Positions 8,894 to 32,000 are shown, counted from the stretch's first letter. The stretch: 32,000 nucleotides of DNA from Candidatus Saccharimonadota bacterium (GCA_030429505.1 JAUIFI010000001.1:660001-692000), one strand, 5' to 3'. Notes: generated by a model not told the origin, from the letters alone. A program made the numbers and translations.

Positions 8894-9553
8894 ATGAAAT
8901 CTCTCCTCAAACTCATTCTTCTCCTGCTAGTATTAGGCATTGGTTACTATTTCTGGTACGGAGAACTCCCGACCAAAAACAATCTTGATATCCATCTTCC
9001 CGACCTCAAACAAGACATTTCTGAAGGAGTACGTGAAATCAAAGAAACAATTCAAACCGCCAAAGAAGAACCCAATCAAAAATCTATATCTGAGAACAAT
9101 ACCCAACAACAATTTCTCCAAGCCCGAGGTATTCCTGGAATTTTCGTGATTCTTTTTTCTGATGCTATGTTAGATGATACAGGAAAACCAATCCAAAGAC
9201 CCAAACCCATTCGCGCCGAAACCTGGACATTTGGAGCGCCACATAATGTAATTTCAACTTTCGAGAACAATTTTTTTATTCAAGAAGAAAGTTCCAATCA
9301 AACTGCCGAGCTCATGAGCCATAGCATCAATCCTCTGAGCTTCACTTTCGATACAACTCAATCAGACATTAAAGAACTTCTCGGCCCCCCTGACTGCCAA
9401 ACCGAAGCTGACGGTGGATCACATACCATCCACACTCTCAAATATCAGGAAACAACCAATCGACCCTACGCCACAGTGTCTTTCCGCGATGATCAAATCA
9501 TGAGTGTGACCGTTGGTATAGCATTTTCCGAAAGTAAACAACTCTGTCCCTAA
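8894..9553 (+). CDS. Membrane-anchored hypothetical protein
   Basis: N-terminal signal-anchor LLKLILLLLVLGIGYYFW. Long ORF with no competing frame. Confidence 0.6.
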   Translation: MKSLLKLILLLLVLGIGYYFWYGELPTKNNLDIHLPDLKQDISEGVREIKETIQTAKEEPNQKSISENNTQQQFLQARGIPGIFVILFSDAMLDDTGKPIQRPKPIRAETWTFGAPHNVISTFENNFFIQEESSNQTAELMSHSINPLSFTFDTTQSDIKELLGPPDCQTEADGGSHTIHTLKYQETTNRPYATVSFRDDQIMSVTVGIAFSESKQLCP

Positions 9554-9562
9554 TATTTCTCT

Positions 9563-10480
9563 ATGAATCATAAATCTTCCGGCTTCATCATGACCTTCGC
9601 GATGGTGACCACCATCATCGTCACCGGAGGTGCGATTTTGCTCGGAAGTGCCGTCATCGAGAATGTAAACCAAAAAGGCTGTGGTCAAGCTTACGATGCC
9701 TGGAGATCGGGTGACATCTACGGTGATCTGGCAGATGCCGATAATACGGAAGTACTCGATCAAGCCCTTGATTGTCAGAAATCCATTCATGACGCGGTGC
9801 AAACTGCCAAACCCGTCGCCACACTGATTTCTGCTTCCGGTAATATCGGCGGCGGAGCTGACAATTTTGGTACACTCATCGTTGATCGTACCATGGATCT
9901 GACCGACAATTTATCCAACCCCGAACACAAACATCCTATTCGAGACGCACTCTTACCACCAGACATCACAAAACACATGGATAAAAAAGAAGAAATAACT
10001 GACAATTCCTCCTCACCCGAAAAGACAAATACCACTAACATCGACACAACAAAATCACTTCCACAAAATTTTATCGGAACACGCACCGCTGATTTTCATC
10101 ACCCAAATCAAAAAACTTTTTCTGAACAAGGAGTAGAAGTCACCATGGATGAACTTAGCGCCGGAAACCTAACCTTTGATTTTAAAGCAGACGGAAGCTT
10201 GACCTGTTCAGTAAGTATAGAAGTAAACTTTTCTACCAACTTCGTAGGACAGCAAACTCAGACTGGATCAGCTTCCGCACAATCAACCAAATGCACAGGT
10301 ACAATTGATAAAGAAGGCATTTTTATCTTTTCTGGAATACTAGATGGCACTATACAAACTGCCGGAAACAATATAAAAAACAGCGGAGCCTTCTCCGGAA
10401 GTGGTTTTATTGATGAATACGGATCACTCCTTGGAGATTTGCAAATAGGAGACAAAAACGAAATTCCGTTTGAAGGATAA
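9563..10480 (+). CDS. Membrane-anchored hypothetical protein
   Basis: N-terminal TM helix GFIMTFAMVTTIIVTGGAILLGSAV. It starts 9 nt after the previous gene, and the C-terminal half is Thr/Gly/Ser-rich. Confidence 0.6.
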   Translation: MNHKSSGFIMTFAMVTTIIVTGGAILLGSAVIENVNQKGCGQAYDAWRSGDIYGDLADADNTEVLDQALDCQKSIHDAVQTAKPVATLISASGNIGGGADNFGTLIVDRTMDLTDNLSNPEHKHPIRDALLPPDITKHMDKKEEITDNSSSPEKTNTTNIDTTKSLPQNFIGTRTADFHHPNQKTFSEQGVEVTMDELSAGNLTFDFKADGSLTCSVSIEVNFSTNFVGQQTQTGSASAQSTKCTGTIDKEGIFIFSGILDGTIQTAGNNIKNSGAFSGSGFIDEYGSLLGDLQIGDKNEIPFEG

Positions 10481-10496
10481 AAAAAAGTAATTCCTA

Positions 10497-11549
10497 TTAC
10501 CACAACCGCATCAAACACACCAACCCAATACTCACCAAAAGCCCAATAGACGCCAAACCAATGTCCTTCAAGACCAGAAACGCCGTCTCTTTGTAATTAT
10601 TTTTGTCAGTCTCCGCATGCAAGTACGTCAAAATCAACTCACGACCTGCCAATAAACCCAAAAAGACCCATGTCGTTGACATTGGGATTGAATTCATTTG
10701 TTTAAAATAAATCAAAATCAACGCCATCGTGATATCGATAAACGTCGCCGCCCGCACATCCACCACATCACGTTTCTCCTCCACGATCGACTGAATCGGC
10801 CCCCCTCGCCAATATAACAATACCCCAATCAGGAGAAACCCGATCAGCACAAACCCTGCAAAGGTATAGCTATCCATACTACGTGGTAAAAAGACCGCAA
10901 TATTCGCCGTGTCCTGCATCAACCAACTTCCCCACAAAAACGCCGTTGATGCCCACTGAGCTACTCGCCATGAGCGATGAGCTTTTTTGGATAAAGGCTT
11001 GATCAACCAGTGTCCAATAAGCTTGGCAATCAGTCCAAAGACAATGATAGCAATCACAAATGCCAACATGTACCCGATGAAAGTTTTGCTCAGCATGGCT
11101 TCGATGGTCTTGCTGGTCGCAAACATGGACAAAATCAAAAACGTCGTACTCACCGGCACACCAAATCGGGTAATCAGGAGCAAGATCGCCGGGGCGAAAA
11201 CTTGTAAGAAATGAAACGAATCTACGGGTTCAATTTTTTCCAATCGTCCAAAATCAACCCCCTCACCACTACTCCATCCCCAATAAGAAATCGCCACAAA
11301 TATCCCCCCGATAAAAAGCCACAAAACCCACCATGGAGCTTTTTTATTGGACGTCAGAAACGTCCCCAAAGTCTGAATACTATCATTGCCGATCGCCGCA
11401 ATCGCCGCCAAGGAAAACCCCGTCCACATCGCGATCGTACTATCGGTGTAGGTAAACGAGATAAAGATTGTGAGAAATATGAAAAAAAAGAGAAAGGTCT
11501 TTTCGGCTTGAACCTTTCTGAGGAAGAAATTAGAAGCTTTTTGTATCAT
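10497..11549 (-). CDS. Divergent PiT/PHO4-superfamily-like transporter (phosphate/sulfate permease-like)
   Basis: A polytopic membrane protein with duplicated motif pairs: AIGNDSIQTLGTF...GVPVSTTF, then MQDTANIAVF...IPMSTTW. These resemble the PiT GANDVAN...PVSTTH repeat. Confidence 0.55.
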   Translation of the reverse strand: MIQKASNFFLRKVQAEKTFLFFFIFLTIFISFTYTDSTIAMWTGFSLAAIAAIGNDSIQTLGTFLTSNKKAPWWVLWLFIGGIFVAISYWGWSSGEGVDFGRLEKIEPVDSFHFLQVFAPAILLLITRFGVPVSTTFLILSMFATSKTIEAMLSKTFIGYMLAFVIAIIVFGLIAKLIGHWLIKPLSKKAHRSWRVAQWASTAFLWGSWLMQDTANIAVFLPRSMDSYTFAGFVLIGFLLIGVLLYWRGGPIQSIVEEKRDVVDVRAATFIDITMALILIYFKQMNSIPMSTTWVFLGLLAGRELILTYLHAETDKNNYKETAFLVLKDIGLASIGLLVSIGLVCLMRLW

Positions 11550-11622
11550 GAAAAAATTATTTTTCCGTAATTCATTGTATGCCTATACTATTTCCGAAAC
11601 AAAATTTATTTTCCATCTTCCT

Positions 11623-12696
11623 ATGCTCACCCATCCTCAAAACAAAAAACACAAGTTCATCCTCACGACAATCCTTTTCCTCGGATTCATAATAGGTCTT
11701 ATCGTAAGTATTACGAAAGATAAGAATACTCAATTACCAAATCAAGATTCCATTCAAATCGCTCTCCAAGAACAACTTCACACAAATGTTCATATCGAAA
11801 TAGAAAAGCAAACCGAAACCCACGCCAGAGGAGCTGTGCGGTTTGTAGATGAACCAGGAGGCGGAATCTTTCTCGCTGTCAAAACTGATACTGGCTGGGA
11901 GGTACCATATCATGGCAATGGAGCAATCGTCTGTGAAGACATGCAAGCCTATGGATTTCCAGAAAACATGATCTCCGATTGCACCCCACTCGCCTCTGCT
12001 GTAGAAATTGTAGAAATCACTGATATATCCTGCGAAAACGATAATCAGTGTGAAACGCCAATGGACTATCTCGTCAAATCAAACTGTCCCTACGGTTCAC
12101 GTTGTATAGAAGGAAAATGTGCTGTAGTTTGTCCCGAAGGCTGGCACCATTTTGCCACTCCAAATGAAAAAGACATGATCGAAACCATTCCCCCAGAAAA
12201 ACTGCTTTCCTCCTATGCTGATCCGACGGAACTTGAAAATAAAAATTTACCCAAAGGCACCTTTGCCTTCAATGAATCGGGGAATTTTTACGGAGAACTT
12301 TTTGTACGAGGATACATAACTACCAAAGAAATCCCCACCGCTTTTTGTGAAGAAAATTGTGATACCGAACAAGGAGTCTTCCTCAATATATTAGAAACGG
12401 GAAACAATGAATTTCAACTTTTCCTCGAAAAAAACAGAGACAACAGTTATGTCGAAAATACTCCCCCACGAGTCATGATCGGATGTCACAAAGGTGATAA
12501 CATTATCTATTTCAATCACTCGGATGAATTAGGCATGAAAGAATTTCTTATCTCTTCAGACGATACTCGCAGCTTTCTTCAAACAAGCTCAGATCAGCCA
12601 TCCTATTTTCGACTAGAAAAATATACCCTCAGCGGAGGTATGGGAGCTCCGACCTGTTATTCACATTTTACGGAAATTGAAAGATTGTTGGACTAG
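11623..12696 (+). CDS. Signal-anchored Cys-rich hypothetical protein
   Basis: The charged N-terminus MLTHPQNKKHK is followed by the TM helix FILTTILFLGFIIGLIV. There are many Cys residues (CENDNQCETP...CPYGSRCIEGKCAVVCP). The listed start at 11548 would overlap the divergent start at 11549. Confidence 0.55.
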   Translation: MLTHPQNKKHKFILTTILFLGFIIGLIVSITKDKNTQLPNQDSIQIALQEQLHTNVHIEIEKQTETHARGAVRFVDEPGGGIFLAVKTDTGWEVPYHGNGAIVCEDMQAYGFPENMISDCTPLASAVEIVEITDISCENDNQCETPMDYLVKSNCPYGSRCIEGKCAVVCPEGWHHFATPNEKDMIETIPPEKLLSSYADPTELENKNLPKGTFAFNESGNFYGELFVRGYITTKEIPTAFCEENCDTEQGVFLNILETGNNEFQLFLEKNRDNSYVENTPPRVMIGCHKGDNIIYFNHSDELGMKEFLISSDDTRSFLQTSSDQPSYFRLEKYTLSGGMGAPTCYSHFTEIERLLD

Positions 12697-14199: not shown

Positions 14200-15285
14200 T
14201 TAGAAAGTAACTAAATCCTTCTCCACTTCTTGCGAAACAAAAGTTTTTCCTTCTTTTTTCTCACCTGCAGGTTCAGATATTTGCATTTGATGAAGTTTTA
14301 AGTATTTCGAAACATCTTTAAAAATTATATTTGCTAGTTGTCTTGCAAATTCAACTGGCACTGCATTTCCAATCATTTTATATCCATCCGCAACATTATC
14401 ATATTTAAACAAAAAACAATCCGGAAAAGTTTGTATTCTTGCGCATTCACGAACAGAAAGCCTTCTGTATAAATCTTCTTTTCCAGGCACAAAAGCCCTT
14501 TTATTCTGCTCAATAAATTTCATTTTAGGAGCTTGTGGATGAATTGGAGCATGGCGACCTCCTGCTTGAATAGTAAAACTTGGCTCATCCCAACTTCTGA
14601 CACGATTTCTTGACATATAAATAGTAGAAAAACCACCATTCATATACTCGTGATTAAGAGCAGAAAGTTTTTCATTTCCATTAGTATAGTTTTTTTCTTT
14701 AGCAGGTTTTGCAGGCCCTAAATCCCAAATAGCATCTTTGAGAGTTTGTCTTGGTAATATTTCTTTTGGAGAACTAAAAGTTTTCCCTATTTTTTTATGG
14801 TATCCCACAATGATAACCCTTTTTCTATCTTGTGGAACTCCGTAATCATTCGCATTTAAAAGAAAATACGAAACATTGTAATTTAAAGACTTAAACTCAT
14901 TGAGAATATTCTGAAATGCTTCTTTATGTCTTGAAAGGAGAATACCTGAAACATTTTCCGCCAGGAAAAATAATGGTTCTTTTTCTTTTAAAATTCTTAT
15001 ATATTCATAAAAAAGTTGTCCTCTTTTATCGTTTATCCCTCTTCCTGCCCCTGCTTCACTCCAGCTTTGACATGGAGGACCACCAATAATTCCTACAGAA
15101 TCAGGAACATCAGAGCTAGGGACATCAATAATACTTCTTTTGTCTAAATGAGTCTTTGGAAAATTATGTTCAAAAGTATCCCAAATTGTTTTATCAAATT
15201 CATTTGCAAAAATAGTCTCAAAACCTGCTTGATGAAAGCCAAGATCAAGACCACCTGCACCGCTAAAAAGAGAAACTATTTTCAT
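14200..15285 (-). CDS. DNA (cytosine-5)-methyltransferase, M.HaeIII-like (predicted GGCC specificity)
   Basis: Motif I LFSGAGGLDLGF, IV GGPPCQSWS, VI FLAENV, VIII QDRKRV and X GNAVPV. The variable region (NHEYMNGGFSTIYMSRNRVRSWDEPSFTIQAGGRHAPIHPQAP) is collinear with the M.HaeIII sequence as I recall it. Confidence 0.95.
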   Translation of the reverse strand: MKIVSLFSGAGGLDLGFHQAGFETIFANEFDKTIWDTFEHNFPKTHLDKRSIIDVPSSDVPDSVGIIGGPPCQSWSEAGAGRGINDKRGQLFYEYIRILKEKEPLFFLAENVSGILLSRHKEAFQNILNEFKSLNYNVSYFLLNANDYGVPQDRKRVIIVGYHKKIGKTFSSPKEILPRQTLKDAIWDLGPAKPAKEKNYTNGNEKLSALNHEYMNGGFSTIYMSRNRVRSWDEPSFTIQAGGRHAPIHPQAPKMKFIEQNKRAFVPGKEDLYRRLSVRECARIQTFPDCFLFKYDNVADGYKMIGNAVPVEFARQLANIIFKDVSKYLKLHQMQISEPAGEKKEGKTFVSQEVEKDLVTF

Positions 15286-16274
15286 GATTCTTTCTGTCTA
15301 TGGACAATATTTAGAGTGTTTTTATACAAACTTTTTGGAGACTTTAAAAGGTTGACATCAAACTTTAATGAAGGCTCAACTCTTGAGCTCGCATTATGAA
15401 TTCTAAAAGATAAAGCCCAATCATTATTAAATTTCACGATAACCGTTGTTTGAGAATTTTCTTTAAAAGAAATATCCGTTATTTCTGTTGGAAGCAAAAC
15501 CTGTGGTGTTTTATATTTTGGCTCAATATCCTTGAAAGAAAGGTTTAGTGTTCCATTTATATTATAGGCATGTATTTCAACGGTATTTTTACTTTTTATA
15601 ACTTTGTAAAAATCTTGATTTCCGGTTAAATAGGCAACAAGGTTTCTTGATATTTCTTTCGGATTTTCTTCATGCAGTCTTTTAAGTTCTGTTACAAATG
15701 CTTGCAGTATTGGAACATATACTGAAGAATGATGATCTTCAAGCTCACTCCACTTTGCAGTGGCATTACTTTTTTGACGGATTTCTTTTAAGTTTTTAAA
15801 AATAGGAGTTACAGAGTCAAAATATTCTTTTGAAACTTTTCTATTAAGCCATTTATCTCCAAAATCTATATCAGCAGAGAGTCTTGAATGTTTAACCGCT
15901 TTATGATTATTTTTGGCAGATACTCCAATTTCCCATTTTTGCAAAAGTCTTATCGCAAGAACGTCTCTTACGTCTCCATTTTTTCCGTGATCGTCTGACA
16001 ATATCTCTAACTGTAGAATATCTTCCTTTCCAATATCATTTGAAAGCCTAGGTTCAATATCCATAAGAAAGTTAACGGCAAAACTTGCCGAAATAAGATA
16101 TTCACTTTTTTCTATTTTGGTCACTTTTTCAAAGCAATCCTTGGCAATAATAAAAGCTGAATTAGCAATAACTTTTACGTTTGTTTTATTTCTTAGCTTT
16201 TCCTCAAATTGAATAAGAAGAGCATATTCAAAAGACTTTCCAGTAATCATTTGCTTTGAAATTCTTATTACCAT
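15282..16274 (-). CDS. Probable type II restriction endonuclease partner of the methyltransferase
   Basis: A 330-aa ORF whose TGA overlaps the methyltransferase ATG (ATGA, 15282-15285). It has the same low-GC composition and matches no housekeeping family. The endonuclease call rests on context only. Confidence 0.6.
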   Translation of the reverse strand: MVIRISKQMITGKSFEYALLIQFEEKLRNKTNVKVIANSAFIIAKDCFEKVTKIEKSEYLISASFAVNFLMDIEPRLSNDIGKEDILQLEILSDDHGKNGDVRDVLAIRLLQKWEIGVSAKNNHKAVKHSRLSADIDFGDKWLNRKVSKEYFDSVTPIFKNLKEIRQKSNATAKWSELEDHHSSVYVPILQAFVTELKRLHEENPKEISRNLVAYLTGNQDFYKVIKSKNTVEIHAYNINGTLNLSFKDIEPKYKTPQVLLPTEITDISFKENSQTTVIVKFNNDWALSFRIHNASSRVEPSLKFDVNLLKSPKSLYKNTLNIVHRQKES

Positions 16275-22118: not shown

Positions 22119-22520
22119 CTAGGTCAAATCAAAGAAAGGATTATACGCCACCTCCCACAAATGCTCATCCGGATCAGAAAAATAACCTGAATATCCACCC
22201 CAGAAAACTTTCTGCGGCTTTTTAATCAACTTCGCCCCAGCATCAAGAGCTTCTTGCATCACCACATCGACTTCTTTTTCAGAGCCAACGTTATGAGCCA
22301 ATGTCACTCGACGAAAGCCACTACCATCAGAAGAAATTTCAGCATCTTCTGCCAATTTATCCACAGGATAAAGCCCCAACCATGTCCCCTCCAGCATAAA
22401 AAAACAAACACTATCCGTATCCTCACCATCTTTCAGAGGAAACCCAAGTTTTTGATAAAACTCACGAGACCTTGAAATGTCAGCAACACCGAGAGTGATA
22501 AGAGAAATTTTGGGCTTCAT
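22119..22520 (-). CDS. VOC (glyoxalase/bleomycin-resistance/dioxygenase) superfamily protein
   Basis: MKPKISLITLGVADISRSREFYQKLGF...FSDPDEHLWEVAYNP is a typical VOC pattern. The start is taken at the internal ATG (22520) rather than 22604. Confidence 0.8.
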   Translation of the reverse strand: MKPKISLITLGVADISRSREFYQKLGFPLKDGEDTDSVCFFMLEGTWLGLYPVDKLAEDAEISSDGSGFRRVTLAHNVGSEKEVDVVMQEALDAGAKLIKKPQKVFWGGYSGYFSDPDEHLWEVAYNPFFDLT

Positions 22521-22598
22521 AGTGGAATGATAGCAATATTTCTCCCGAAAAAGAAGGTCGTGTACAATACACTTACTATTTCTTTTTTCTTTATCATT

Positions 22599-22982
22599 AT
22601 GCAAAAAAACCCTATCGGCTGGATCGAAATACCTGTGTCTGACTTAGACAGAGCAGAAAAATTTTATACTGATTTTTTTAGTTTTAAATGTGACCGTCAA
22701 CCGGAAAAAGATGGTTACACCATGAGCTGGTTTCCAATGGATATGAAAGGCTACGGATCAGCCGCCACTCTCATGCACGGAAAAGGTTACGCCCCTTCTC
22801 ACGAAGGACCAATCCTCTACTTCACAGCTCCCGAAGGACGTGTCGATAAAGCGCTGGAAAAAGCAAAAAAAATGAATATCAAAATCCTGCTCCCAAAAAC
22901 TGACATCGGAGAACACGGCTTTATGGCTTATATCGAAGATTCAGAAGGAAACAGAATAGCCATACATTCGATGGAGGGATAA
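22599..22982 (+). CDS. VOC (glyoxalase-like) superfamily protein
   Basis: IGWIEIPVSDLDRAEKFYTDFF...GFMAYIEDSEGNRIAIHS. The start is taken at the ATG at 22599 (MQKNPIGW). Confidence 0.8.
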   Translation: MQKNPIGWIEIPVSDLDRAEKFYTDFFSFKCDRQPEKDGYTMSWFPMDMKGYGSAATLMHGKGYAPSHEGPILYFTAPEGRVDKALEKAKKMNIKILLPKTDIGEHGFMAYIEDSEGNRIAIHSMEG

Positions 22983-23048: not shown

Positions 23049-23435
23049 TCATTTTTTATTTCCATTTAAATACTCATTAACTTTTCTGACCACATCATTA
23101 AGCGTCCAATCTATTTTAACAAGATAATCATAGACTCCATTCCTCATAGATCGAACAATACTGTCATGATCTTGAAGGTTAGTCAGCATAATAACACCAA
23201 TATTTTTCCCTCGTTTATCTTCTCGCAACTTCTGAAACATCGTCAGACCATCCATCTTGGGCATGACTATATCAAGTAAAATCATATCAGGAGAATTTAA
23301 AAGAGCCATGCGAAGACCATCTTCTCCATTACTACATTCTACAATATAAAAACCTTCTTTTGAGAATTTATCTCGCAATGCTTCACGAAGTGAATCGTCA
23401 TCTTCGACAATAAGAATGGTCTTTTTAGTAGTCAT
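23049..23435 (-). CDS. Single-domain (CheY-like) response regulator
   Basis: Receiver motifs ILIVEDDD, the phospho-acceptor context MILLDIVMPKMDG, and a conserved Thr in VIMLTN. There is no output domain, and the 4-nt overlap with the kinase gene suggests coupling. Confidence 0.9.
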   Translation of the reverse strand: MTTKKTILIVEDDDSLREALRDKFSKEGFYIVECSNGEDGLRMALLNSPDMILLDIVMPKMDGLTMFQKLREDKRGKNIGVIMLTNLQDHDSIVRSMRNGVYDYLVKIDWTLNDVVRKVNEYLNGNKK

Positions 23436-25849
23436 TCTTTTTCGTTTAATTTTTTAATCCCTTTTTTAGATTTCATGCCTTTTTGAGGCAAAGTAACAAA
23501 GAAAGTAGTACCTTTATTCTCCTGAGATGTGAACCTGATTTCTCCCCCGGCTTGTTCAACGATAGATTTTACGAGATAAAGTCCCAATCCATTACCTTCC
23601 GTATCTTGCTGTTTGACATTGTCAGCCCTAAAAAGCTTCGTAAATATTTTATCAGCTTGACCTTTGGGGATCCCATATCCGGTGTCTGTTACTTGAATGG
23701 AAATATCACTCCTTTTCTTTTGAACAGAAAGTTCTATTTTTCCTTTTTCAGGAGTGTATTTGACTGCATTAGAAAGTAGGTTTTGAAAAATAATTCGGAT
23801 GAGTTTTGGATCAGCGGATAAGACAGGAAGTTTTTCATCATATTGTGTGATAATTTTGAGATTTTTTTCTTTTATATCAGGGGCAAGTTCTGACAAAACA
23901 CTTTTTGCGGTTTCTTTGAGATCTACATCTTCAGGATCAATTGCTAGAGTACCCAACTCTATCCGCGATACATTGAGCAACGAGTCAACGAGCTTGACCA
24001 TACGCTTATTACCATCATAAATCTGCTGGACATATTTTTTTTGTTCCTTACTGATTTTTCCAGCATCACCATCGAGCAGCATAGCCGAAAACCAATTGAT
24101 CGCTGACAAAGGTGTACGCAATTGATGAGAAGCGAGTGAGACAAATTCTGTTTTGGCTTTATCGATTTCTTTGCGTTTGGTGATATCCTGCTGGATACCG
24201 AGATAAAAAATATTTTTTTTGTTTTCTTGGATAGGAATAACAGACAGCTGAACAGGATACTCTGATCCATCTTTTCTTTTATTTATAATATCCTCGGTTT
24301 GAAAAACTTGTCCCTTTTCGATCGATTTCCACATTTTGGTGTAGACTTCAGGATTAGTTTTCCCGCTCCTCAAGAGAGCGGGTTTTTTGCCAACTACGTC
24401 TCTCATCAGATAACCATTCATAGCCTCCCATGCTTTATTGACATAGATGATAAACCCTGCGGGATTGGTGATAATGATTCCGTCTGTAGATCGTTCAACA
24501 GCTTGTTGAAATTTCTTGGTTTCTCGTATTTGCTGTTGCATTTTTTCTTTTTCTTCTGTGATATCTTCGAGAACGTTCGCAAGAGCCTTTTGTGTGTCTT
24601 CTAGATCAGCATTTTGTTTTTGCAGGTCTTTTGTTTTTTCAAAAATCCCTTTTTCCAAATTATTGTATATTTGATTGAGTGTCTGAGTCATACTAAAAAA
24701 GGCTCTCGCTAACTGTCCTATTTCATCTTTTTTTTCCAAAAGGTCGGATGGAAATTCTGCATTTCGGTTTCCTTTGGAGATTGATCGTGCTAAACGAGTT
24801 ATTTTTTCCAGAGGACGAGCAATAGACTTTCCGGCAAAGAAGGTCACGATAATGGTCAGCGGTATAAAGAGAATAGTAATAAAAAAAGATCTTTGTCTCA
24901 AATCCCATAAGGGCTGAAGTAAATCATCTTCGTCAATGACTTTAAAGAGTATCCAGTACTCGTTTCTGTTCTGTGGATTATAAAATATTTTTTGCCATAT
25001 TCTCCACTTCTTTTCTTCTGAATCATAACTGTCAAATATATTATGACGGGCAACATCATCAATCAACTCGGGTTGTTCCAAAAAATAATTATAAGTGTGC
25101 GTTCCTAATTGATCACTAAAAAGTTTATTCATGTCAGGATGAATTAAAAACTGACCTTGTCGATCAATTAATATGGTTTCTAACGCACCATTAACTTGTG
25201 TCACTTTTCGCAGTATACGCTCAGCAAAAATGTTCATAATAACAGCTCCTTTTCGTTGTCCGGTTTCTGCATCAAAAACAGGAATACCAAATCGTAGTAC
25301 TGGCACATAGGGAATCTGAATAACTTCATTTTCTACATTGAGATCTAACGGAGATACATAAACAGAATTTTTTGAAGCTCTCATTATATCTCGAAAATAA
25401 TATCTATCGCTTTTATTCTGCAATTCTGACTCAGCGGCAATACGAACTGTTTCACCAATTTTTTCAACCCGGATCATTTCCTGCCCTTTTTCATCCAGAT
25501 AACGCATCTGAAAGATATCAGGATCTGTTTGAATTTCGGCAAAAAATATCGTTTGAAGACGTTCTTTCCACTGCTTGAGTGTACTTTGGTCGACCGGATC
25601 AATCCCAGTTTCACGAGCACGAATGATCCCCTGAATCGGAGGATAAAGGGCTGCAAGTTTCGCTTTAGAAGCGAAAGCGTCCAAAAGATTTTTAATAGTC
25701 GAACCTTCTTCACGAATAACCGTGTGATGAATAAGTCGAGCCTGATTTGAAATAGTCTCTCTAGTATTAGGGAAAATCAAAACCCACTGGATAATAACGG
25801 CTGGTACTATTGAGGCAAAAAGTAAGAGTAGGATCAGATTTTTTTTCAT
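23432..25849 (-). CDS. Sensor histidine kinase (TM, double-Cache-like periplasmic domain, TM, HAMP, PAS, HisKA, HATPase_c)
   Basis: H-box FVSLASHQLRTPLSAI, N box LLSNAVKYTP, G boxes DTGYGIP and GNGLGLYLV. HAMP is KSIARPLEKITRLA...EIGQLARAF and PAS is TDGIIITNPAGFIIYVNKAWEAMNGY. The extracytoplasmic region is Cache-like (YYFRDIMRASKNSVYVSPLDLN...PVLRFGIPVFD). Confidence 0.9.
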   Translation of the reverse strand: MKKNLILLLLFASIVPAVIIQWVLIFPNTRETISNQARLIHHTVIREEGSTIKNLLDAFASKAKLAALYPPIQGIIRARETGIDPVDQSTLKQWKERLQTIFFAEIQTDPDIFQMRYLDEKGQEMIRVEKIGETVRIAAESELQNKSDRYYFRDIMRASKNSVYVSPLDLNVENEVIQIPYVPVLRFGIPVFDAETGQRKGAVIMNIFAERILRKVTQVNGALETILIDRQGQFLIHPDMNKLFSDQLGTHTYNYFLEQPELIDDVARHNIFDSYDSEEKKWRIWQKIFYNPQNRNEYWILFKVIDEDDLLQPLWDLRQRSFFITILFIPLTIIVTFFAGKSIARPLEKITRLARSISKGNRNAEFPSDLLEKKDEIGQLARAFFSMTQTLNQIYNNLEKGIFEKTKDLQKQNADLEDTQKALANVLEDITEEKEKMQQQIRETKKFQQAVERSTDGIIITNPAGFIIYVNKAWEAMNGYLMRDVVGKKPALLRSGKTNPEVYTKMWKSIEKGQVFQTEDIINKRKDGSEYPVQLSVIPIQENKKNIFYLGIQQDITKRKEIDKAKTEFVSLASHQLRTPLSAINWFSAMLLDGDAGKISKEQKKYVQQIYDGNKRMVKLVDSLLNVSRIELGTLAIDPEDVDLKETAKSVLSELAPDIKEKNLKIITQYDEKLPVLSADPKLIRIIFQNLLSNAVKYTPEKGKIELSVQKKRSDISIQVTDTGYGIPKGQADKIFTKLFRADNVKQQDTEGNGLGLYLVKSIVEQAGGEIRFTSQENKGTTFFVTLPQKGMKSKKGIKKLNEKE

Positions 25850-25868
25850 AGATAAGAGAATATTACCC

Positions 25869-27404
25869 CTAAGAATCCGAGGATTTCTTTTTCTTTTCTT
25901 TGACTGATTTTTTCAGTTCTATCATTTTCATTTCTCGTCCAATCATGACTTTATTGAGCTTTTCTAGTGATTCTTTTTGCTTTCGGATTTGTTCGTCTGA
26001 TTTTTTACGAACAGTGATATCTTGGGTTTGTGCTACAAAATACAAAGGTGTTCCCCCTCTATCTCGAACGAGGGAGACATCTAAAAGAACCCATATGATA
26101 TTTTTTTTCTTGTGAATATAACGTTTTTCTGACTGGAAGTGAGCGACTTCTCCGTTGATGAGTTTCTTCATCAAGTTCATACAGCGATCTAGATCGTCTG
26201 GGTGAGTTAGAGATTGAAAACTCATCTTGAGAAGTTCTTCTTCACTATATCCAAGAATGTCACAAAGTGCTTTATTGACCTGAATCCATTTACCTTTGAG
26301 AGAGACAAGTGCCATACCGACGGGAGCATTCTGAAATGCTTGCGAAAACCTATTTTCACTCTCCTCTAGTGAAGATTGAGCTTTTTCTGTCTGAAGCGAT
26401 GTCCGATACTGATGGAAAAGCAAAAAACTAATTATACTCAGGAGAAAAATACTAGCACTTGCGCTAATCAAGAGAGAGAATAAAGGAAGTTGTGTATGAA
26501 ATCTTTCTTCCATTTCTACTGAAGATTCCCAGAGAATTGTCCAAACATTGTTTCCAAGTTCTAATGATTTTTGAATACTAAATCGTGGAGAATGATTTGC
26601 ATCAATTATTTTTTTATAGATCAGGTTATCGTTGGTAATGTTTGCTTGGTCATAAACCGAAAAACTAAGAAAACTGTCAGTATTAATAATATCTTGTAAA
26701 AAGTTTTCCCCCACAAATGGAGCATAAACCCATCCCTGCAAGGCTTCTCGTTTTTGTATTACTGTTTCTACGGGCTTGCCTTTCTCATAGACTGGCAAAA
26801 GGAGTAAAAAACCTGCTTTTTTTTGTTGATCCTGTACGAGCTGGATTATCTGGGTGATGGTAGCTTTGCCACTATCACGAGCTTTCTCTGCTGCAAAGCG
26901 TCTATTGGCTTCACTACCAATATTGAGTCCTACTGCTTCCTTATTGATCTCAACTGGTTCGATAAACAAAATAATGTAGTCTTCCTTATAATCTAAGTTA
27001 CCAATGTTGGTAATTTTGAATTGTGGATAATCATCTTCTCGTGCCAATTGCACAAAATTTTCTAGATCATCTTTTGACACCACTTGAATGTAACCAATAC
27101 CGTTAATACCAGGATAGTGCTGATTGACTTTTAGCGCCTGAACATAAGCTCCCCACTCATTTCGTTCTACACTTTGCGAAGCATTAAAGAGACCCACCCC
27201 TCCCCATAATCCTTCCTCATAAAATAACATTCGATTTTGGATGGCTGTTTCCGAGTCATGCACGATATCCAAAAAGAGTTCATAAGACTCTTTTTGTTCA
27301 AATTCTTTTGTTTTTTGATATATAAAGATATTTGTTGCAAAAAGAAATATCAAACACATCCCCCAAACTCCCCAGTAATTCAGTTGTTTTTTGTTTTTTT
27401 TCAT
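25869..27404 (-). CDS. CHASE-PAS sensor protein lacking any transmitter/output domain
   Basis: Order is TM, CHASE (YPGINGIGYIQVV...EPVEINKEAVGLNIGSEANRRFAAEKARDSG...LLLPVYEKG), TM, PAS (APVGMALVSLKGKWIQVNKALCDILGY), then a roughly 40-aa coiled-coil tail and the stop. Confidence 0.85.
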   Translation of the reverse strand: MKKNKKQLNYWGVWGMCLIFLFATNIFIYQKTKEFEQKESYELFLDIVHDSETAIQNRMLFYEEGLWGGVGLFNASQSVERNEWGAYVQALKVNQHYPGINGIGYIQVVSKDDLENFVQLAREDDYPQFKITNIGNLDYKEDYIILFIEPVEINKEAVGLNIGSEANRRFAAEKARDSGKATITQIIQLVQDQQKKAGFLLLLPVYEKGKPVETVIQKREALQGWVYAPFVGENFLQDIINTDSFLSFSVYDQANITNDNLIYKKIIDANHSPRFSIQKSLELGNNVWTILWESSVEMEERFHTQLPLFSLLISASASIFLLSIISFLLFHQYRTSLQTEKAQSSLEESENRFSQAFQNAPVGMALVSLKGKWIQVNKALCDILGYSEEELLKMSFQSLTHPDDLDRCMNLMKKLINGEVAHFQSEKRYIHKKKNIIWVLLDVSLVRDRGGTPLYFVAQTQDITVRKKSDEQIRKQKESLEKLNKVMIGREMKMIELKKSVKEKKKKSSDS

Positions 27405-27411
27405 AGAGTTT

Positions 27412-27894
27412 TTACAAACTTACCTCAATAGTTTCTGACAATTCAGCATCAGGTGCACATACAGTTACACGTTTATTCCCATCGCTTGTAATATGATATC
27501 CGGCACCATTAGAAGTTGCTCCTATAGGATCAACAGGAATTTTTACCAGATACTCCTTATCGGCAGTTAATTCACCTAAGCTAACTAGATTATCACAACT
27601 AGCTGCATCAGTTCGACAAATTTCATTCGAAAAAAGATTTTCACAACTTCCGACAGGAATATCTGCAGGGAGTTCTCCATTGTTATCAATGGCGTATTGA
27701 TAAACAGCATTTATGATGGTTGAAATATTAGCTTGTCTTTGTGCATTTTTGGTTTGACTGAGCTGTTTGCTGGGATTTATAGCTATGATGATAATGCTCG
27801 CTAATATGGCAATAGCAGCTACAACGAGAAGTGTTTCGATAAGAGTAAAACCGGATCTTGGTGAGCGAAAACAATAATTTTTTTGCATGAGCAT
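27412..27894 (-). CDS. Type IV pilin/pseudopilin (PilE-like; could be the major subunit)
   Basis: Class III signal RSG|FTLIETLLVVAAIAILASIII, which carries the prepilin N-methylation motif with Glu5. Confidence 0.85.
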   Translation of the reverse strand: MLMQKNYCFRSPRSGFTLIETLLVVAAIAILASIIIIAINPSKQLSQTKNAQRQANISTIINAVYQYAIDNNGELPADIPVGSCENLFSNEICRTDAASCDNLVSLGELTADKEYLVKIPVDPIGATSNGAGYHITSDGNKRVTVCAPDAELSETIEVSL

Positions 27895-27954
27895 AAGAAA
27901 TGAATATTACCATGATACCAAACCCTTTCGGGATTGAAAAATATTAAATTTGCA

Positions 27955-28359
27955 TTAAAAATCAGCTACTTCTGTCCATGAATGAAGAACTATTTGGGGG
28001 GTAATGCTAGAAATAGTAACTTGTGTTTTTCGGATTATACTGCCAGCTGTGCCAGTAGCTGTGACACTACGTGTTTCTCCTCCTGTATTGGTTACGGTAT
28101 AAGTACATGTTCCTGTAGGGAGAGTGACATTACCAGAGCCAGAAAAAGAAGTATTCGTTCTGACTTGTTCCAAGGCTTGCTCTGCGCAGGTATTACTCAA
28201 AGACTTGGCTTGGAGTGATTGTTGAAGTGTGAAGCTAGAACGTGAAGAATCGAGTCCCAAAAGAAGAAGTGATACAGTAATTGATACTCCAACAGCGCCT
28301 ATAATCAGGATGCTCAGGAGCATAATATAGCCTTGTTTTCGGTTTGGTATTTTAAACAT
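27955..28359 (-). CDS. PilX-like minor pilin
   Basis: N-terminus RKQG|YIMLLSILIIGAVGVSITVSLLLLG lacks Glu5. It is followed by the helix ...AKSLSNTCAEQALEQV, as in PilX N-terminal domains. Its position in the operon also fits. Confidence 0.6.
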   Translation of the reverse strand: MFKIPNRKQGYIMLLSILIIGAVGVSITVSLLLLGLDSSRSSFTLQQSLQAKSLSNTCAEQALEQVRTNTSFSGSGNVTLPTGTCTYTVTNTGGETRSVTATGTAGSIIRKTQVTISSITPQIVLHSWTEVADF

Positions 28360-28363
28360 AGGT

Positions 28364-28897
28364 TTAAGGATAAAATCTCAAGGAAGCAGAACTAGTAAAT
28401 GTCTTTGTGAAATCGTATTCGTTTCTTGATCCAGGATTTGTATGGGTAAGTGTTAATTGGATTTGAATAGTACCCGGAGTATCAATTCGAGAAATGTTTT
28501 CAAAAGTAAGATTCGAGACAATCACTCGATCAGAAGTCAGGCTTATAGCACTACCTACGCCTTCAGTGATGCGAAGAGTTCCATTCGATAGGTCGAAGAT
28601 AGTCGGATTTTGTTCAGCATTACTCATGGACAGAGAAAGCGTTGATCCACTATCCCCATTGGTGGGAATAGTGATAGCTTCAGCATTTCGGATAGCTTGG
28701 GTAATGATTTGCATAGTTTGAATCCCTTGTTGTCCGACTTCGGCAATAGTTTGGTTTTTTATTTTGGCTTGGATAAGTGTCCAGTAGAGAGTGGATATAA
28801 CTATGAGCATTCCTCCTGCGAGTGCTATGTAAAGCAACAGCTCGACAAGAGTAAAGGCATATTTTTTGTGTAGGGAAGATTGCAAAAAAATGGACAT
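28364..28897 (-). CDS. PilW-like minor pilin with an atypical -1 residue
   Basis: KKYA|FTLVELLLYIALAGGMLIV has Ala instead of Gly at -1 and keeps Glu5. There is a 1-nt overlap (TAATG) with the upstream gene. Confidence 0.7.
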   Translation of the reverse strand: MSIFLQSSLHKKYAFTLVELLLYIALAGGMLIVISTLYWTLIQAKIKNQTIAEVGQQGIQTMQIITQAIRNAEAITIPTNGDSGSTLSLSMSNAEQNPTIFDLSNGTLRITEGVGSAISLTSDRVIVSNLTFENISRIDTPGTIQIQLTLTHTNPGSRNEYDFTKTFTSSASLRFYP

Positions 28898-31104
28898 TAG
28901 TAGGGTTTGAAAATAAGAAGCTCTTGGTTGTTATCGGTCGTAGTTATAAAGGCAGTATTATTGCGTACAAATATTGAGGTTGGTCGACCGGCAAGACTGG
29001 TGATACTCAAGGATATAGGAGAAACGGGAGAGGTCACATCAATCACCTGAAAACCATTGATGTCTCGATTTACCACGATAAAAGCCTTATTATTATCGAC
29101 AAAGATATCATTCACATCGTCTCCTAACTCAAGTCCATTCAGATTCATCACTATCGGAGACAAAGGATTGGTAATATTGATGATGTAAAACTCTCCGGAC
29201 TGATTAACCGCATCTTTGCCCACATACGCATAGTTTCCATCGACAAAAACTGCACTTCCAGCAGAGTTATTAGGAAGATCAAGCGCAAACACGACGCTAG
29301 GAGAAGTAGGATTGCTAATATCAACTACTTGAAATTCTTCTTGATCATTTGCTACAGCCAGATAGGCATAGTTGCCAGATACAGTAATATCATTAATGGT
29401 ATTACCAATATTGAGTCCTCCTGACAGAGTAGGTGAAGATGGTGTCGAGACGTCCAGAATGTAAAGTTCATAGCCCGGATTTCCTCCGACATTATTGGTT
29501 GCCAAATAGGCGTAATCACCAGACACATCTATGGCTGATGTATCAGCATTACCCGATTTATTAAAGTCTCCAATCTGAGATAGAATTCCATCAGTATGTA
29601 CTATCTGTAACTCTTCACTATTATTACGTGAAGCGATGTAAGCATTTGGAAAGGAGATATCGATACCTGTAGCTCCTGATGAACCAAGATCAAGAGAGCT
29701 GGAGAGTGTCGGAGTCACTTCATTACTGACGTCAATCACATACAAATCATCCTGATTTCCTTGAAATGTTACAAGATAAGCAGTGTCATTCAGTACAAAC
29801 ACGTCCTGACCATCAGCACTAGAAGGCGTATTGTAAATCCCCTCAATCCTCGGAAATACCCATTCGGGAAGTGTCAGATCAATGTTGGCAGATTTCGTAG
29901 AACCATCAAGCATCCTAAACGTGATGGTAAAGCTCGTACTCAACATGTTTCCATCAAAACGGAAAAAATCTATATCGACTATTCCTGATGCAGGAGAGAG
30001 GACTGTATCAACGATGTCGATTTCAGTACCAGAATTTTGAGAGCCACTTGGACTGCCAGGTCCGCCGTCAGCCCATGCAGTATTATTGGCGATGTCGATC
30101 TGTTCGATTTGTCTTCCTGCTTTATTCCAAAAAGTCGTGATTGTATCAATAGTAATAGCACACGTCGGATCAGTATTCTGTACAGTTATATTTTCGAGAT
30201 CAGTAAAAAGGATTCCTCCGACATCAGCTGAACTAGTATCAATAGTCAAAGTGCTGGCTTGAAAAGGACAAGAAGGACCGGAAAAGTCGATACTAACGGA
30301 TTTTGAGCTGCCATCCGTCATAGTGAAAGTCATATCGAGAAGCACACCACTCATGTCACCATCAAATTGCAGATAATCCAAGTTTATAGCTCCGCCTCCG
30401 GCTGTCAGGGTGACATTTTGAATGTCGATTTCTACCCCCGAACTTTGTGCACCACTAGGAGTGCCTGGGCCAGTATCAGACCATACGATATTTCCATCGA
30501 TAGCCACTTCATCCATCAGGGTAAAGACATCCCAAGACACGGTTATTTTATCGAGGATAAGGTCGGTAGTACCAGTATTCTCCAGAGTAATTCCATTGAT
30601 CCTGGTATTGCCTAAGGCTAAGCCAGCACTACTGGTATCAATAATCAGATCAGTCAGATCTGATATGACTCTCTGCCAATTGGTTAGGTACATTTCAGCA
30701 CTGACAGTTCCTTGCCTTTGTGAACTTTGCTGCCAGGTAATAGTACTGGTGATATGTCTGGTTTGATCATTGATAGTGGTAATAGTGATTTGCCGAGTGA
30801 ATATATCAGTTTGATCTTGCATTCCGGAAAGTATCCATTGATTGCCACTTTTGATTATTCCATGTTTACCATTCACAAGGAGTGAAAAACTATCATCTCG
30901 GATGTTTCGGATAGCCTCCAACCCCTCTTCCGCCAACATTACCGCTCGAGCACGTTCGACTGATAGCTTTGTACTTTCTTGTCCATATAAAAAAGCGCCA
31001 ATAAATCCCATGACGATCAATCCGAGCAGTCCTGAAGCCAATACAATTTCTACCAGCGAAAATCCTGATTGGTTTGTACGGAAAAATTGAGGAGAAAAAA
31101 ACAT
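28897..31104 (-). CDS. Giant PilV-like minor pilin fused to two tandem ~125-aa modules and a seven-repeat LVIVD beta-propeller (putative pilus-tip adhesin)
   Basis: Class III signal TNQSG|FSLVEIVLASGLLGL. Tandem modules cover aa 153-277 and 286-413. Seven LVIVD-like repeats occupy aa ~431-733, e.g. GNYAYLAVANDQEEFQVVDISNPTSPSV, GDYAYLATNN..YELYILDVSTPSSPTL and NNKAFIVVNRDINGFQVIDVTSPVSP. Confidence 0.85.
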   Translation of the reverse strand: MFFSPQFFRTNQSGFSLVEIVLASGLLGLIVMGFIGAFLYGQESTKLSVERARAVMLAEEGLEAIRNIRDDSFSLLVNGKHGIIKSGNQWILSGMQDQTDIFTRQITITTINDQTRHITSTITWQQSSQRQGTVSAEMYLTNWQRVISDLTDLIIDTSSAGLALGNTRINGITLENTGTTDLILDKITVSWDVFTLMDEVAIDGNIVWSDTGPGTPSGAQSSGVEIDIQNVTLTAGGGAINLDYLQFDGDMSGVLLDMTFTMTDGSSKSVSIDFSGPSCPFQASTLTIDTSSADVGGILFTDLENITVQNTDPTCAITIDTITTFWNKAGRQIEQIDIANNTAWADGGPGSPSGSQNSGTEIDIVDTVLSPASGIVDIDFFRFDGNMLSTSFTITFRMLDGSTKSANIDLTLPEWVFPRIEGIYNTPSSADGQDVFVLNDTAYLVTFQGNQDDLYVIDVSNEVTPTLSSSLDLGSSGATGIDISFPNAYIASRNNSEELQIVHTDGILSQIGDFNKSGNADTSAIDVSGDYAYLATNNVGGNPGYELYILDVSTPSSPTLSGGLNIGNTINDITVSGNYAYLAVANDQEEFQVVDISNPTSPSVVFALDLPNNSAGSAVFVDGNYAYVGKDAVNQSGEFYIINITNPLSPIVMNLNGLELGDDVNDIFVDNNKAFIVVNRDINGFQVIDVTSPVSPISLSITSLAGRPTSIFVRNNTAFITTTDNNQELLIFKPY
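29866..30648 (-). repeat. Intragenic tandem duplication (two ~125-aa modules) in the giant pilin
   Basis: Module 1 (30274-30648) and module 2 (29866-30249) share IDTSSA..., W(S/A)D(T/G)GPG(T/S)PSG(A/S)Q(S/N)SG(V/T)EIDI, FDG(D/N)M and DGS(S/T)KS. They have diverged at the DNA level. Confidence 0.8.
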
Positions 31105-31109
31105 GTGAC

Positions 31110-31550
31110 TTAGTACTGAATCATACCTTTAGCATTGATCGTGAGAGAATGAATTTCATTGAGTGGACTGGTAAAGCTAAGCATTCCGGTGGTATTCGGC
31201 TCTCCAGATAATTTTGTAAAAACGATTTCTGTCAGCCCTGACGGGAGAAATCCATTAGGGATGGAAAATGATTCATCAAAGTTGGCATTCCGTGTCCCAA
31301 AACTCGCTCCCTGAAAAAGAGTTACTTGTCCTGTCTGAACCGATATGCCCCATGTCTGGTCACTATGTGAAGCCTGAGAAAGAAGTTGTGCTCGACGCAT
31401 AGTTTGAGCAACGATGTTGACCGCGATGCCACCTTCGTTATGAACTGCGAACGAACGGTACAAAGGAATCGAGAGTCCAGCCAGTAACGCAAATATTACA
31501 ATGGATAGAAGGATTTCTACCAGAGTGAAGCCTTTACTCGGTTTCATCAT
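31110..31550 (-). CDS. GspH/FimT/FimU-like minor pilin
   Basis: Class III signal MMKPSKG|FTLVEILLSIVIFALLAG. It is the first pilin gene of the array and ends 5 nt before the next gene. Confidence 0.8.
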   Translation of the reverse strand: MMKPSKGFTLVEILLSIVIFALLAGLSIPLYRSFAVHNEGGIAVNIVAQTMRRAQLLSQASHSDQTWGISVQTGQVTLFQGASFGTRNANFDESFSIPNGFLPSGLTEIVFTKLSGEPNTTGMLSFTSPLNEIHSLTINAKGMIQY

Positions 31551-32000
31551 TTTCTAAAAGTTCTATGTATCTCCCAATGACCCAGCCGGTTTGATTTTCT
31601 GATATCTGAATCTCATACCAACCTTCACTTTCGGTGATGTACGGATATGTCTCCCCGGGAGAGACGGTCGCAATGATATTTCCATATGGTTCTGCCCTAG
31701 CATTGAGTGAGCCAGTTCCGGTAGGAAGGATAATGAGCTTTGAAACAGACTTTTCTGGGATCGTGGTTTCTTCTGAAACCGGAGGAATGATAATAATCTC
31801 TTCTGGAATATTTCTTTCTTGTATTGGTGGTGGAGAAATGGTTTTTGGGATCGGCGCAGGAGATGTAGTACTTGTGCTAGTTGTAGTAGCATTGTTAATA
31901 TTTCCTACTAAGTTATAGATAGGTAAGATAACACTAAGAGCTACCGAAATCACTCCTCCCCAAACAATGATGAGTAAAAGAGGTTCTAAAATGACAGTGA
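31534..32000 (-). CDS. Membrane-anchored Pro/Thr-rich protein with a C-terminal SH3b domain; 5' end lies outside the window
   Basis: The frame stays open past the listed GTG (31953) to the window edge (...TVILEPLLLIIVWGGVISVALSVIL). The C-terminus GSLNARAEPYGNIIATVSPGETYPYITESEGWYEIQISENQTGWVIGRYIE is bacterial SH3-like. It overlaps the next gene by 17 nt. Confidence 0.7.
   Translation of the reverse strand, partial: TVILEPLLLIIVWGGVISVALSVILPIYNLVGNINNATTTSTSTTSPAPIPKTISPPPIQERNIPEEIIIIPPVSEETTIPEKSVSKLIILPTGTGSLNARAEPYGNIIATVSPGETYPYITESEGWYEIQISENQTGWVIGRYIELLENDETE

Follow-up and report, generated by a model that had tools for sequence, protein, structure and literature searches.

Why should genes for a sensor histidine kinase and a CheY-like receiver follow a run of pilin genes in a Patescibacteria genome? 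The question is raised by a 32,000-nucleotide (nt) stretch of DNA from Candidatus Saccharimonadota bacterium (GCA_030429505.1 JAUIFI010000001.1:660001-692000; the whole stretch is referred to below as the window), in which nine minus-strand reading frames lie one behind another at 23049-31953. Read from its sequence, the region forms the distal end of a type IV pilus operon of Patescibacteria (Candidate Phyla Radiation, CPR), with a built-in two-component cassette. On balance, we lean toward the view that the co-sensor, kinase, and receiver encoded at its end make this distal pil operon a sensory module that is independent of CheA and coupled to type IV pili.

In the ultra-small, host-dependent Patescibacteria, type IV pili are regarded as the principal organelle by which cells attach to hosts and take up DNA. 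A cassette that is kept in the pilus operon across distant lineages would offer a testable control point, comprising the kinase, the receivers, and the candidate ligand domains (CHASE and dCache). One study notes that ultra-small genomes attached to sediment have CheY-like genes at roughly double the frequency (PMC9938205).

The signalling genes and their place in the pilus operon

The cassette consists of three genes, two of which contain the short segments that are discussed in the next section:

23049..23435, minus strand: stand-alone CheY-like receiver of 128 residues, clade A (see below), the last gene of the array (Pfam Response_reg only, 6e-24)
23432..25849, minus strand: sensor histidine kinase of 805 residues (Pfam HK_sensor_dom_bact, which is dCache-like, HAMP, PAS, HisKA, and HATPase_c)
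24542..24592, minus strand: acidic helix QKALANVLEDITEEKEK of the kinase (residues 420-436), between HAMP and PAS, a candidate docking site for the co-sensor tail
25869..27404, minus strand: kinase-less co-sensor of 511 residues, with a transmembrane segment, an extracellular CHASE domain, a transmembrane segment, a cytoplasmic PAS domain, and a C-terminal basic helix (Pfam CHASE, 5e-52, and PAS)
25902..25967, minus strand: C-terminal tail motif LEKLNKVMIGREMKMIELKKSV of the co-sensor (residues 480-501), 13 residues from the protein end

The kinase is ordered as transmembrane segment, dCache-like sensor, transmembrane segment, HAMP, coiled coil, PAS, HisKA (H575), and HATPase_c, and its boxes are intact (SHQLRTP with H575, NLLSNAVKYT, DTGYGI, and GNGLGLYLV; Pfam HisKA 7e-16, HATPase_c 1e-28). 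The receiver retains D12/D13, D55, T85, Y104, and K107. More than 100 homologues of the receiver were found at 45-62% identity, and wherever these are named the label is one from the Patescibacteria (Moraniibacteriota, Kerfeldbacteria, Falkowbacteria, Woesebacteria, or "Patescibacteria group"). The initial annotation had described a CheY-only regulator without a DNA-binding domain, and this description holds, given that Response_reg is the only domain matched and that all of the 120 homologues listed are single-domain proteins of 116-156 residues. A sequence search of solved structures with the receiver returned only generic receiver domains. When the full kinase was scanned against one genome per species, only distant kinases from Bacteroidota and other phyla were recovered, and no relatives.

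Genomic contexts were fetched starting from kinase homologues, from receiver homologues, and from a metagenome scan (using a sensor-domain-only alignment, phmmer, and motif searches). For almost every gene of the array, the best BLASTP match occupies the corresponding position in four collinear loci (L097, L096, L093, and L024), at identities of 45-57% for the pilins, 46-51% for the PAS-DHp-CA core of the kinase, and 54-62% for the receiver. The two parts without a collinear orthologue are the CHASE-PAS gene and the dCache portion of the kinase. In five other loci, the same components are found in a different order. The arrangements are as follows (numbers are protein lengths in residues):

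L097 (complete Moraniibacteriota genome CP064974.1): pilB, pilC-SH3, 146, 476 (LVIVD), 178, 143, pilin 151, pilin 152, 85, NAD_binding_1, PAS-PAS-kinase, receiver 130
L096: receiver 121, pilB, pilC-SH3, pilins, PAS-kinase, receiver 128, receiver 120
L093: receiver 118, pilB, pilC-SH3, five pilin-size genes, dCache-PAS-kinase, receiver 126, receiver 122
L024: pilB, pilC, pilins 151, 466, 178, 134, and 159, kinase-less sensor 464, MASE3-PAS-kinase
L011 (permuted): dCache-HAMP sensor, kinase, receiver, pilB, pilC, pilins, pilM, pilins
L012 and L099 (permuted): kinase, receiver(s), pilB, pilC, pilins
L014 (permuted): receiver, pilB, pilC, HAMP-only protein, hemerythrin, kinase, receiver
L095 (permuted): pilC, pilins, receiver, two genes, 4HB-HAMP kinase, two receivers

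The synteny of pilins, kinase, and CheY-only receiver that the initial annotation proposed to check is thus present, both in collinear and in rearranged form. Across these loci the input domains of the kinase are swapped (dCache, PAS-PAS, MASE3, 4HB, PilJ) and the kinase core and receiver are conserved. Together with the 4-nt overlap of the two genes, this joint conservation suggests that the kinase passes phosphoryl groups to the 128-residue receiver. Pilus genes lie beside the kinase/receiver pair in three of five look-ups from kinase homologues and in four of five from receiver homologues (i.e., 7/10 independent database look-ups), and in 10 of 17 loci once the metagenome loci are added. 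If one assumes a generous 10% chance of adjacency, 7/10 has a probability of about 1e-5, a value that is indicative only, because the loci are related. That the linkage is kept in two gene orders is a stronger argument than the tally. It spans lineages labelled Moraniibacteriota, Woesebacteria, and Patescibacteria (CAILIB01).

At the upstream end of the array, the first frame continues without a stop as far as the window end (...TVILEPLLLIIVWGGVISVALSVILPIYNLVGN...), and the gene runs past 32000:

31534..32000, minus strand: 3' end of pilC (GspF/T2SSF platform protein), encoding the final transmembrane helix and, after a Thr/Pro-rich linker, an SH3b domain at the C-terminus (Pfam SH3_3 and alignment)

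This frame had been taken for a separate gene encoding an SH3b protein. It aligns instead with the C-termini of the PilC-SH3 fusions of L093 (468 residues), L097, L096, and L024 (E-values from 1e-8 to 1e-30), and the approximately 35 C-terminal T2SSF residues inside the window align with PilC of L093, L097, L024, L099, and L095. The open frame and its match to the PilC C-terminus make the GTG start at 31953 an artefact. They also show that the array begins inside pilC and belongs to a longer pil operon, of which only the distal part, truncated at the window end, is seen here. What was initially called a self-contained module is therefore better described as the tail of a pilB-pilC-pilin operon; pilB is found directly upstream of pilC in collinear L093, L096, L097, and L024. 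A C-terminal SH3b domain following a Thr/Pro-rich linker occurs in the window PilC and in those of L093 (5324-6730), L096 (3744-5072), and L097 (1833-3272). It may anchor the platform to the cell wall, as three transmembrane helices would put the C-terminus outside.

Between pilC and the signalling genes are five pilin-like genes:

31110..31550, minus strand: minor pilin of 146 residues in the FimU/GspH/ComGD position, motif KGFTLVEILL (Pfam N_methyl)
28897..31104, minus strand: pilin-headed adhesin candidate of 735 residues (Pfam LVIVD, Beta_propel, and N_methyl)
28364..28897, minus strand: minor pilin of 177 residues in the PilW/GspJ position, motif YAFTLVELLL (read from the sequence)
27955..28359, minus strand: PilX/ComGG-like pilin-related protein of 134 residues (weak NCBIfam ComGG match)
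27412..27894, minus strand: GspG/ComGC/PilA-like pilin of 160 residues with four cysteines (Pfam N_methyl)

Four of the five carry a prepilin signal (GFTLVE, GFSLVE, AFTLVE, or GFTLIE), and three match Pfam N_methyl; the 177- and 134-residue frames have no Pfam match. The 146-residue pilin shows weak NCBIfam similarity to ComGD and GspH and has orthologues that are 47-52% identical in L097, L096, and L024, where orthologues of the 177-residue pilin (46-48% identical) are also found. The 134-residue protein has a hydrophobic N-terminus without the G/E5 motif, and its orthologues occupy the same position in these three loci (52-57% identity). The 735-residue protein combines a PilV-like prepilin N-terminus (weak NCBIfam PilV match) with a C-terminal beta-propeller of LVIVD repeats, and two tandem repeats of about 115 residues between head and propeller are 40% identical to each other (E = 2e-27). 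Its N-terminal 140 residues are conserved in L097 (also with LVIVD), L096, L093, and L024. No match was obtained for this protein in a sequence search of solved structures, and AlphaFold2 run without an alignment gave an unusable model (mean predicted local distance difference test score, pLDDT, of 37). The L097 orthologue has just 476 residues, which indicates that the adhesin part varies in length among relatives.

The 160-residue pilin had been counted among the minor pilins. It is more probably the major pilin, judging from its best-scoring NCBIfam models (GspG, ComGC/ComGD), the duplication of its orthologue in L097 (orthologues are 45-55% identical), and a conserved promoter-like site of its own.

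The layout of the array is as first reported, in that the coordinates of the open reading frames (ORFs) reproduce the nine co-directional frames and the eight spacings between them (-17, 5, -1, 4, 60, 7, 19, and -4 nt). The domain calls made at the time (receiver-only, dCache-like kinase, CHASE-PAS, pilins, SH3) are likewise borne out by Pfam. A consensus scan of the window found 4 terminator sites in total, against 6.3 expected. On the minus strand of the array interior it found nothing convincing, only a 5-bp stem within the gene for the 177-residue pilin, in agreement with the earlier statement that the array contains no convincing terminator. Folding at the junction between the last pilin and the CHASE-PAS gene (27404-27412) is no better than that of shuffled sequences (z = 0.14). 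The initial annotation placed the sensors inside the pilin transcription unit. The 60-nt gap contains a promoter-like site:

27912..27940, minus strand: promoter-like site with an extended -10 element, TTTTCA-17-TGgTATCAT, inside the 60-nt gap before the last pilin (consensus scan)

An extended -10 is also found in the gap before the orthologous pilin of L097 (TGGTATACT), L093 (TGCCATAAT), L024 (TTGATG-17-TATAAT, with TG before the -10), and L099 (TTGACA-17-TATACT). Because the site is matched in relatives, the nine genes are probably not one simple transcription unit, and we predict that it is probably an internal promoter for the last pilin and the three signalling genes. The best explanation of the minus-strand order would then be the pilC-SH3b 3' end, four minor-pilin-like genes, the internal promoter, the probable major pilin, the co-sensor, the kinase, and the receiver.

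The co-sensor tail and the acidic helix of the kinase

How could a sensor without an output contribute to such a cassette? The CHASE-PAS protein has no output domain recognised by Pfam and no phospho-acceptor histidine, and its CHASE domain is not joined to any of the usual catalytic outputs (HisKA/HATPase, GGDEF, or cyclase). Its closest full-length homologues (38-42% identity over about 90% of the length) all continue into HisKA and HATPase_c, whereas the window protein has only 45 residues beyond its PAS domain. It might, for this reason, be suspected of being the decaying remnant of a CHASE-PAS kinase, with no function of its own. We consider this very improbable. The reading frame is intact, and near its C-terminus is a 22-residue motif that is shared, at the same genomic position, by kinase-less dCache, HAMP-only, and PAS sensors from 10 loci and by about 5400 protein clusters. 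Such conservation of the tail is not expected of a remnant and contradicts that reading. A recent duplication of PAS between co-sensor and kinase was also considered and rejected (only 26% identity).

The tail consensus, LEKxNKxMxGRELKMIELKKxI, lies 8-16 residues from the C-terminus of every kinase-less sensor that sits beside the kinase in 10 related loci; tail-bearing sensors were seen in the window, L011, L014, L016, L022, L024, L026, L036, L060, and L094. The output-less sensors encoded directly upstream of the kinase are otherwise diverse. L011, L016, L022, L026, and L094 have one of the dCache-HAMP type, L024, L036, and L060 have the kinase-type sensor joined to HAMP, L014 has a HAMP-only protein, and L022 and L026 have a PAS-only protein. 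The initial annotation included the CHASE-PAS protein in its module. Its gene is not conserved, however, and many other kinase-less co-sensors can take its place. No pilus genes surround the closest CHASE-PAS kinase homologue (L001), so the CHASE sensor falls outside the conserved core.

A profile built from two tail sequences and run against 1.84 billion cluster representatives (E <= 1e-3) matched 5,375 cluster proteins. Of the best 149 of these, 132 carry the motif by regular expression, and the median distance of the motif to the C-terminus is 14 residues (92% within 25). Pfam analysis of 100 tail matches gave PAS (69), HAMP (16), CHASE (5), GAF (5), dCache (4), CHASE4 (3), receiver (3), PocR, and CBS. 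There was no kinase, cyclase, phosphodiesterase, or methyl-accepting chemotaxis protein (MCP) signalling domain among the 25 most frequent of the 35 Pfam families matched in these 100 proteins. We found no matching tail model in Pfam or NCBIfam, and a literature text search for the motif returned nothing. Names are nearly absent from the tail clusters, with one cluster member labelled Parcubacteria. Provisionally, we define the family as proteins with sensor domain(s) only and with LEKxNKxMxGRELKMIELKKxI within about 25 residues of the C-terminus, a description that fits the window protein.

The kinase itself offers a possible partner for the tail. Beside tail-bearing sensors, the segment between HAMP and PAS follows the pattern Q.A(I/L)LN(I/V)LED(I/V).EEK. 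Across the Patescibacteria-like loci, tail and acidic helix occur together in 10 (window, L011, L014, L016, L022, L026, L036, L060, L080, and L094) and neither occurs in eight (L012, L013, L093, and L095-L099); in the other metagenome loci, neither motif was detected. The resulting two-by-two table (10/1/0/8 for both, tail alone, helix alone, and neither) has a Fisher's exact probability of order 1e-4, with the caveat that the loci are not independent. The tail has a net charge of +6 and the kinase helix one of -5, and both segments follow an S-helix-like (E/Q)(R/Q)T...LEK stretch. These features suggest that the basic tail may pair with the acidic helix, in which case several sensors could feed one kinase. 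If true, the pair would be a new general wiring of output-less sensors to a kinase. Thousands of output-less proteins with PAS, HAMP, CHASE, GAF, or Cache domains share the tail, and its pairing with an acidic helix of the adjacent kinase hints at a docking code of general use, which could explain signalling by "sensor-only" proteins, which are common in annotations and usually left unexplained.

Small hemerythrin-domain proteins are encoded between kinase-less sensors and kinase in L014 (9489-9917) and in the P0127 contig, and a 138-residue ORF in the same position of L022 (6628-7044) resembles them in sequence. These may represent an oxygen or iron input to the same kinase.

A proposed path from the kinase to the pilus machine

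If the kinase integrates these inputs, the remaining question is what its receiver does. A neighbour-joining tree of the 28 stand-alone receivers from the window and the related loci separates three clades, with up to three receivers per locus. Clade A, which includes the window receiver, has the signature REDxWGK ... LTNL ... YDYLVKSDWK and always follows the kinase. Clade B (SNLGQxED ... DYxVKS) is directly upstream of pilB in L012, L014, L093, L096, and L099, and follows the pilins in L095. Clade C (WLDHYL around the phospho-site) also matches Pfam cREC_REC and, when present, is the first gene after the kinase. The three-clade division was noted for the receiver genes after the kinase and those before pilB in L093, L094, L095, L096, L098, and L099. 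In all six loci where the position is visible, a stand-alone receiver is directly upstream of pilB (five of clade B; that of L011 belongs to a sister group). By analogy, a clade-B receiver and pilB are predicted just beyond the window end.

In the module that we favour, extracellular ligands would be read by the dCache domain of the kinase and the CHASE domain of the co-sensor, and the latter, without catalytic output of its own, would signal through its basic C-terminal helix to the acidic helix preceding the kinase PAS. The kinase would autophosphorylate at H575 and pass the phosphoryl group to D55 of the receiver, and probably also serve paralogous receivers encoded upstream of pilB, outside the window. 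One or more phosphorylated receivers, having no DNA-binding domain, would then contact the pilus machine (the PilB ATPase or the PilC platform), and this contact would gate pilus extension, adhesion, or DNA uptake. Direct action of a receiver on the motor is suggested by the lack of a DNA-binding output, by the receiver clade found at pilB, and by precedent (see below). The initial annotation likewise had the CheY-like protein act on pilus machinery, and in relatives a stand-alone receiver does adjoin the motor gene, although it is of a different clade from that in the window.

Alternatively, the phosphorylated receiver could bind a DNA-binding protein or a sigma/anti-sigma factor, or enter a relay to a distant regulator, and in this way set expression from the internal promoter. 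Such transcriptional control is what other pilus two-component systems beside pilin genes exert (FimS-AlgR, PilS-PilR), and it would be in keeping with the conserved promoter-like site before the probable major pilin, with the presence of as many as three receivers in one locus (which would fit a relay or sink), and with the extracytoplasmic function (ECF) sigma factor encoded elsewhere in the window. We nevertheless judge it unlikely. Within the conserved pilus-kinase-receiver string of the related loci we saw no Hpt protein and no DNA-binding regulator; the lone regulator noted, of 234 residues, is about 6 kb downstream in L013, a locus with no pilus genes in view. Furthermore, one receiver clade is immediately before pilB, not before the pilin promoter, and the signalling genes are downstream of the pilin that they would regulate.

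Several points weigh against a pilus-dedicated sensory module. The tie of a receiver to PilB, PilC, or PilM is one of genomic linkage, and pilB itself is outside the window (it would lie beyond 32000). The window receiver belongs to clade A, while it is clade B that adjoins pilB, so that the former might act on a different target or serve as a phosphate sink. The docking proposal draws on co-occurrence and charge only, and in one locus (L024) the tail is found without the acidic helix, although the helix is never found alone. The initial annotation had held that sensory genes found independently of pilin genes in relatives would speak against its module, and here the outcome is divided: the pair is linked to pilus genes in the 10 loci counted above, but stands apart from them in L013, L026, L098, and the P0127 contig (each flanked on either side by 10 kb or more of visible sequence). 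Finally, pilus genes are numerous in small genomes, so that some chance adjacency is expected, and the loci are phylogenetically related, so that counts of them are not independent. In L098, an rRNA-like (ribosomal RNA) stretch precedes the kinase; on the short contigs L016, L022, and L094, no pilus gene is in view.

The four unlinked contexts would be readily understood if the cassette were a general envelope or environment sensor that is merely co-located with the pilus operon in a gene-dense genome, its receiver having a target unrelated to pili. The kinase core does have its best NCBIfam matches to PnpS, WalK, and PhoR types, and the receiver family is abundant in Patescibacteria. Against this, linkage to pilus genes is seen in most of the look-ups and loci tallied above, spans several lineages, and is kept through two gene orders, and we consider a general sensor improbable.

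Returning to the module coupled to pili, its parts can be joined into one scheme, in which a HisKA kinase with exchangeable input takes signals from tail-docked, kinase-less co-sensors and serves up to three receivers, the one encoded before pilB gating the motor. This complete scheme is offered tentatively, as a possibility that we would still regard as doubtful in its entirety.

The remainder of the window contains no further pilus gene, and Rfam and tRNA (transfer RNA) scans of the window were empty. Other features observed are as follows:

3780-4568, minus strand: protein of 262 residues with a weak match to Por_Secre_tail (type IX secretion C-terminal sorting; 30 bits versus a cut-off of 27), a domain that one would not expect in Patescibacteria
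8894-12696: four large ORFs in succession (219, 305, 350, and 382 residues) with zero Pfam matches
14200-16274, minus strand: complete HaeIII-type restriction-modification pair (C-5 cytosine methylase, 1e-93; RE_HaeIII, 3e-96), in the part of the window with the lowest GC content (0.32-0.33)
22119-22604, minus strand: glyoxalase-family ORF
22527-22982, plus strand: glyoxalase-family ORF

The two glyoxalase-family ORFs overlap by 78 nt on opposite strands, and one of their starts has probably been called wrongly. The gene on the plus strand runs toward the receiver gene, and the 66-nt gap between these two convergent genes is without a recognisable terminator.

Comparison with known systems

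Our literature searches turned up no description of kinase/receiver cassettes within the pilus operons of Patescibacteria, and the closest comparisons are with systems of other bacteria. The Pil-Chp system of Pseudomonas aeruginosa (PilG/PilH, ChpA, PilI, PilJ) employs multiple single-domain CheY-like receivers for the control of type IV pili. It resembles the present locus in having single-domain receivers dedicated to pili, but the kinase here is a HisKA sensor kinase, and neither the window nor any of the related loci inspected contains a CheA-type kinase (Hpt, P5), CheW, MCP signalling domain, CheR, or CheB.

FimS-AlgR is a two-component system located beside fimU-pilVWXY1E, and AlgR acts transcriptionally through its LytTR DNA-binding domain. 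The likeness is one of position, given that the cassette here is also beside a minor-pilin set, the order of which parallels fimU/pilV/pilW/pilX/(pilY1)/pilE. The differences are that the propeller adhesin is fused to the PilV-like pilin, that the receiver is bare and has no LytTR domain, and that the sensor genes are co-directional with and downstream of the pilins. Nor does the locus correspond to PilS-PilR, as the domains of an NtrC-type regulator (sigma-54 AAA+ and HTH) are absent from the window and the related loci.

The comG (ComGA-GG) and gsp (GspE-K) operons share with the pil operon considered here an ATPase, a platform protein, and five pilin-like genes, and there is weak NCBIfam similarity to ComGC/GD/GG and to GspG/GspH. 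The window and the inspected related loci showed no secretin. Those operons are, however, without a kinase or receiver, whereas here these are present, SH3b is found on the platform, and a propeller is found on one pilin.

The nearest precedents for the proposed mechanism are from Xanthomonas. In X. oryzae, EmvR, a regulator with a single domain, interacts with a classical kinase; it also binds PilB, the ATPase activity of which it represses (PMC11973254). In X. campestris, DrdR binds both PilB and PilT (PMC13507683). EmvR/ColS and DrdR are alike to the present case in pairing an output-less receiver with a HisKA-type kinase. According to the two papers the receiver alters the ATPase activity of PilB on binding it, and this is the mechanism that is proposed here. 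EmvR and DrdR are, however, encoded by orphan genes away from pil in a Gram-negative proteobacterium. In the locus described here, kinase and receiver(s) are within a Patescibacteria pilus operon, with up to three receiver paralogues and with co-sensors.

Accessory sensors are known from RetS-GacS heteromers, YycH/YycI-WalK, and UhpC-UhpB, in each of which an output-less membrane sensor is thought to modulate a neighbouring kinase. The co-sensors considered here differ in that they constitute a family sharing a basic C-terminal helix across many sensor domains. The conserved tail of kinase-less sensors and the partner helix of the kinase, which had no place in the initial annotation, are the most novel element of the locus.

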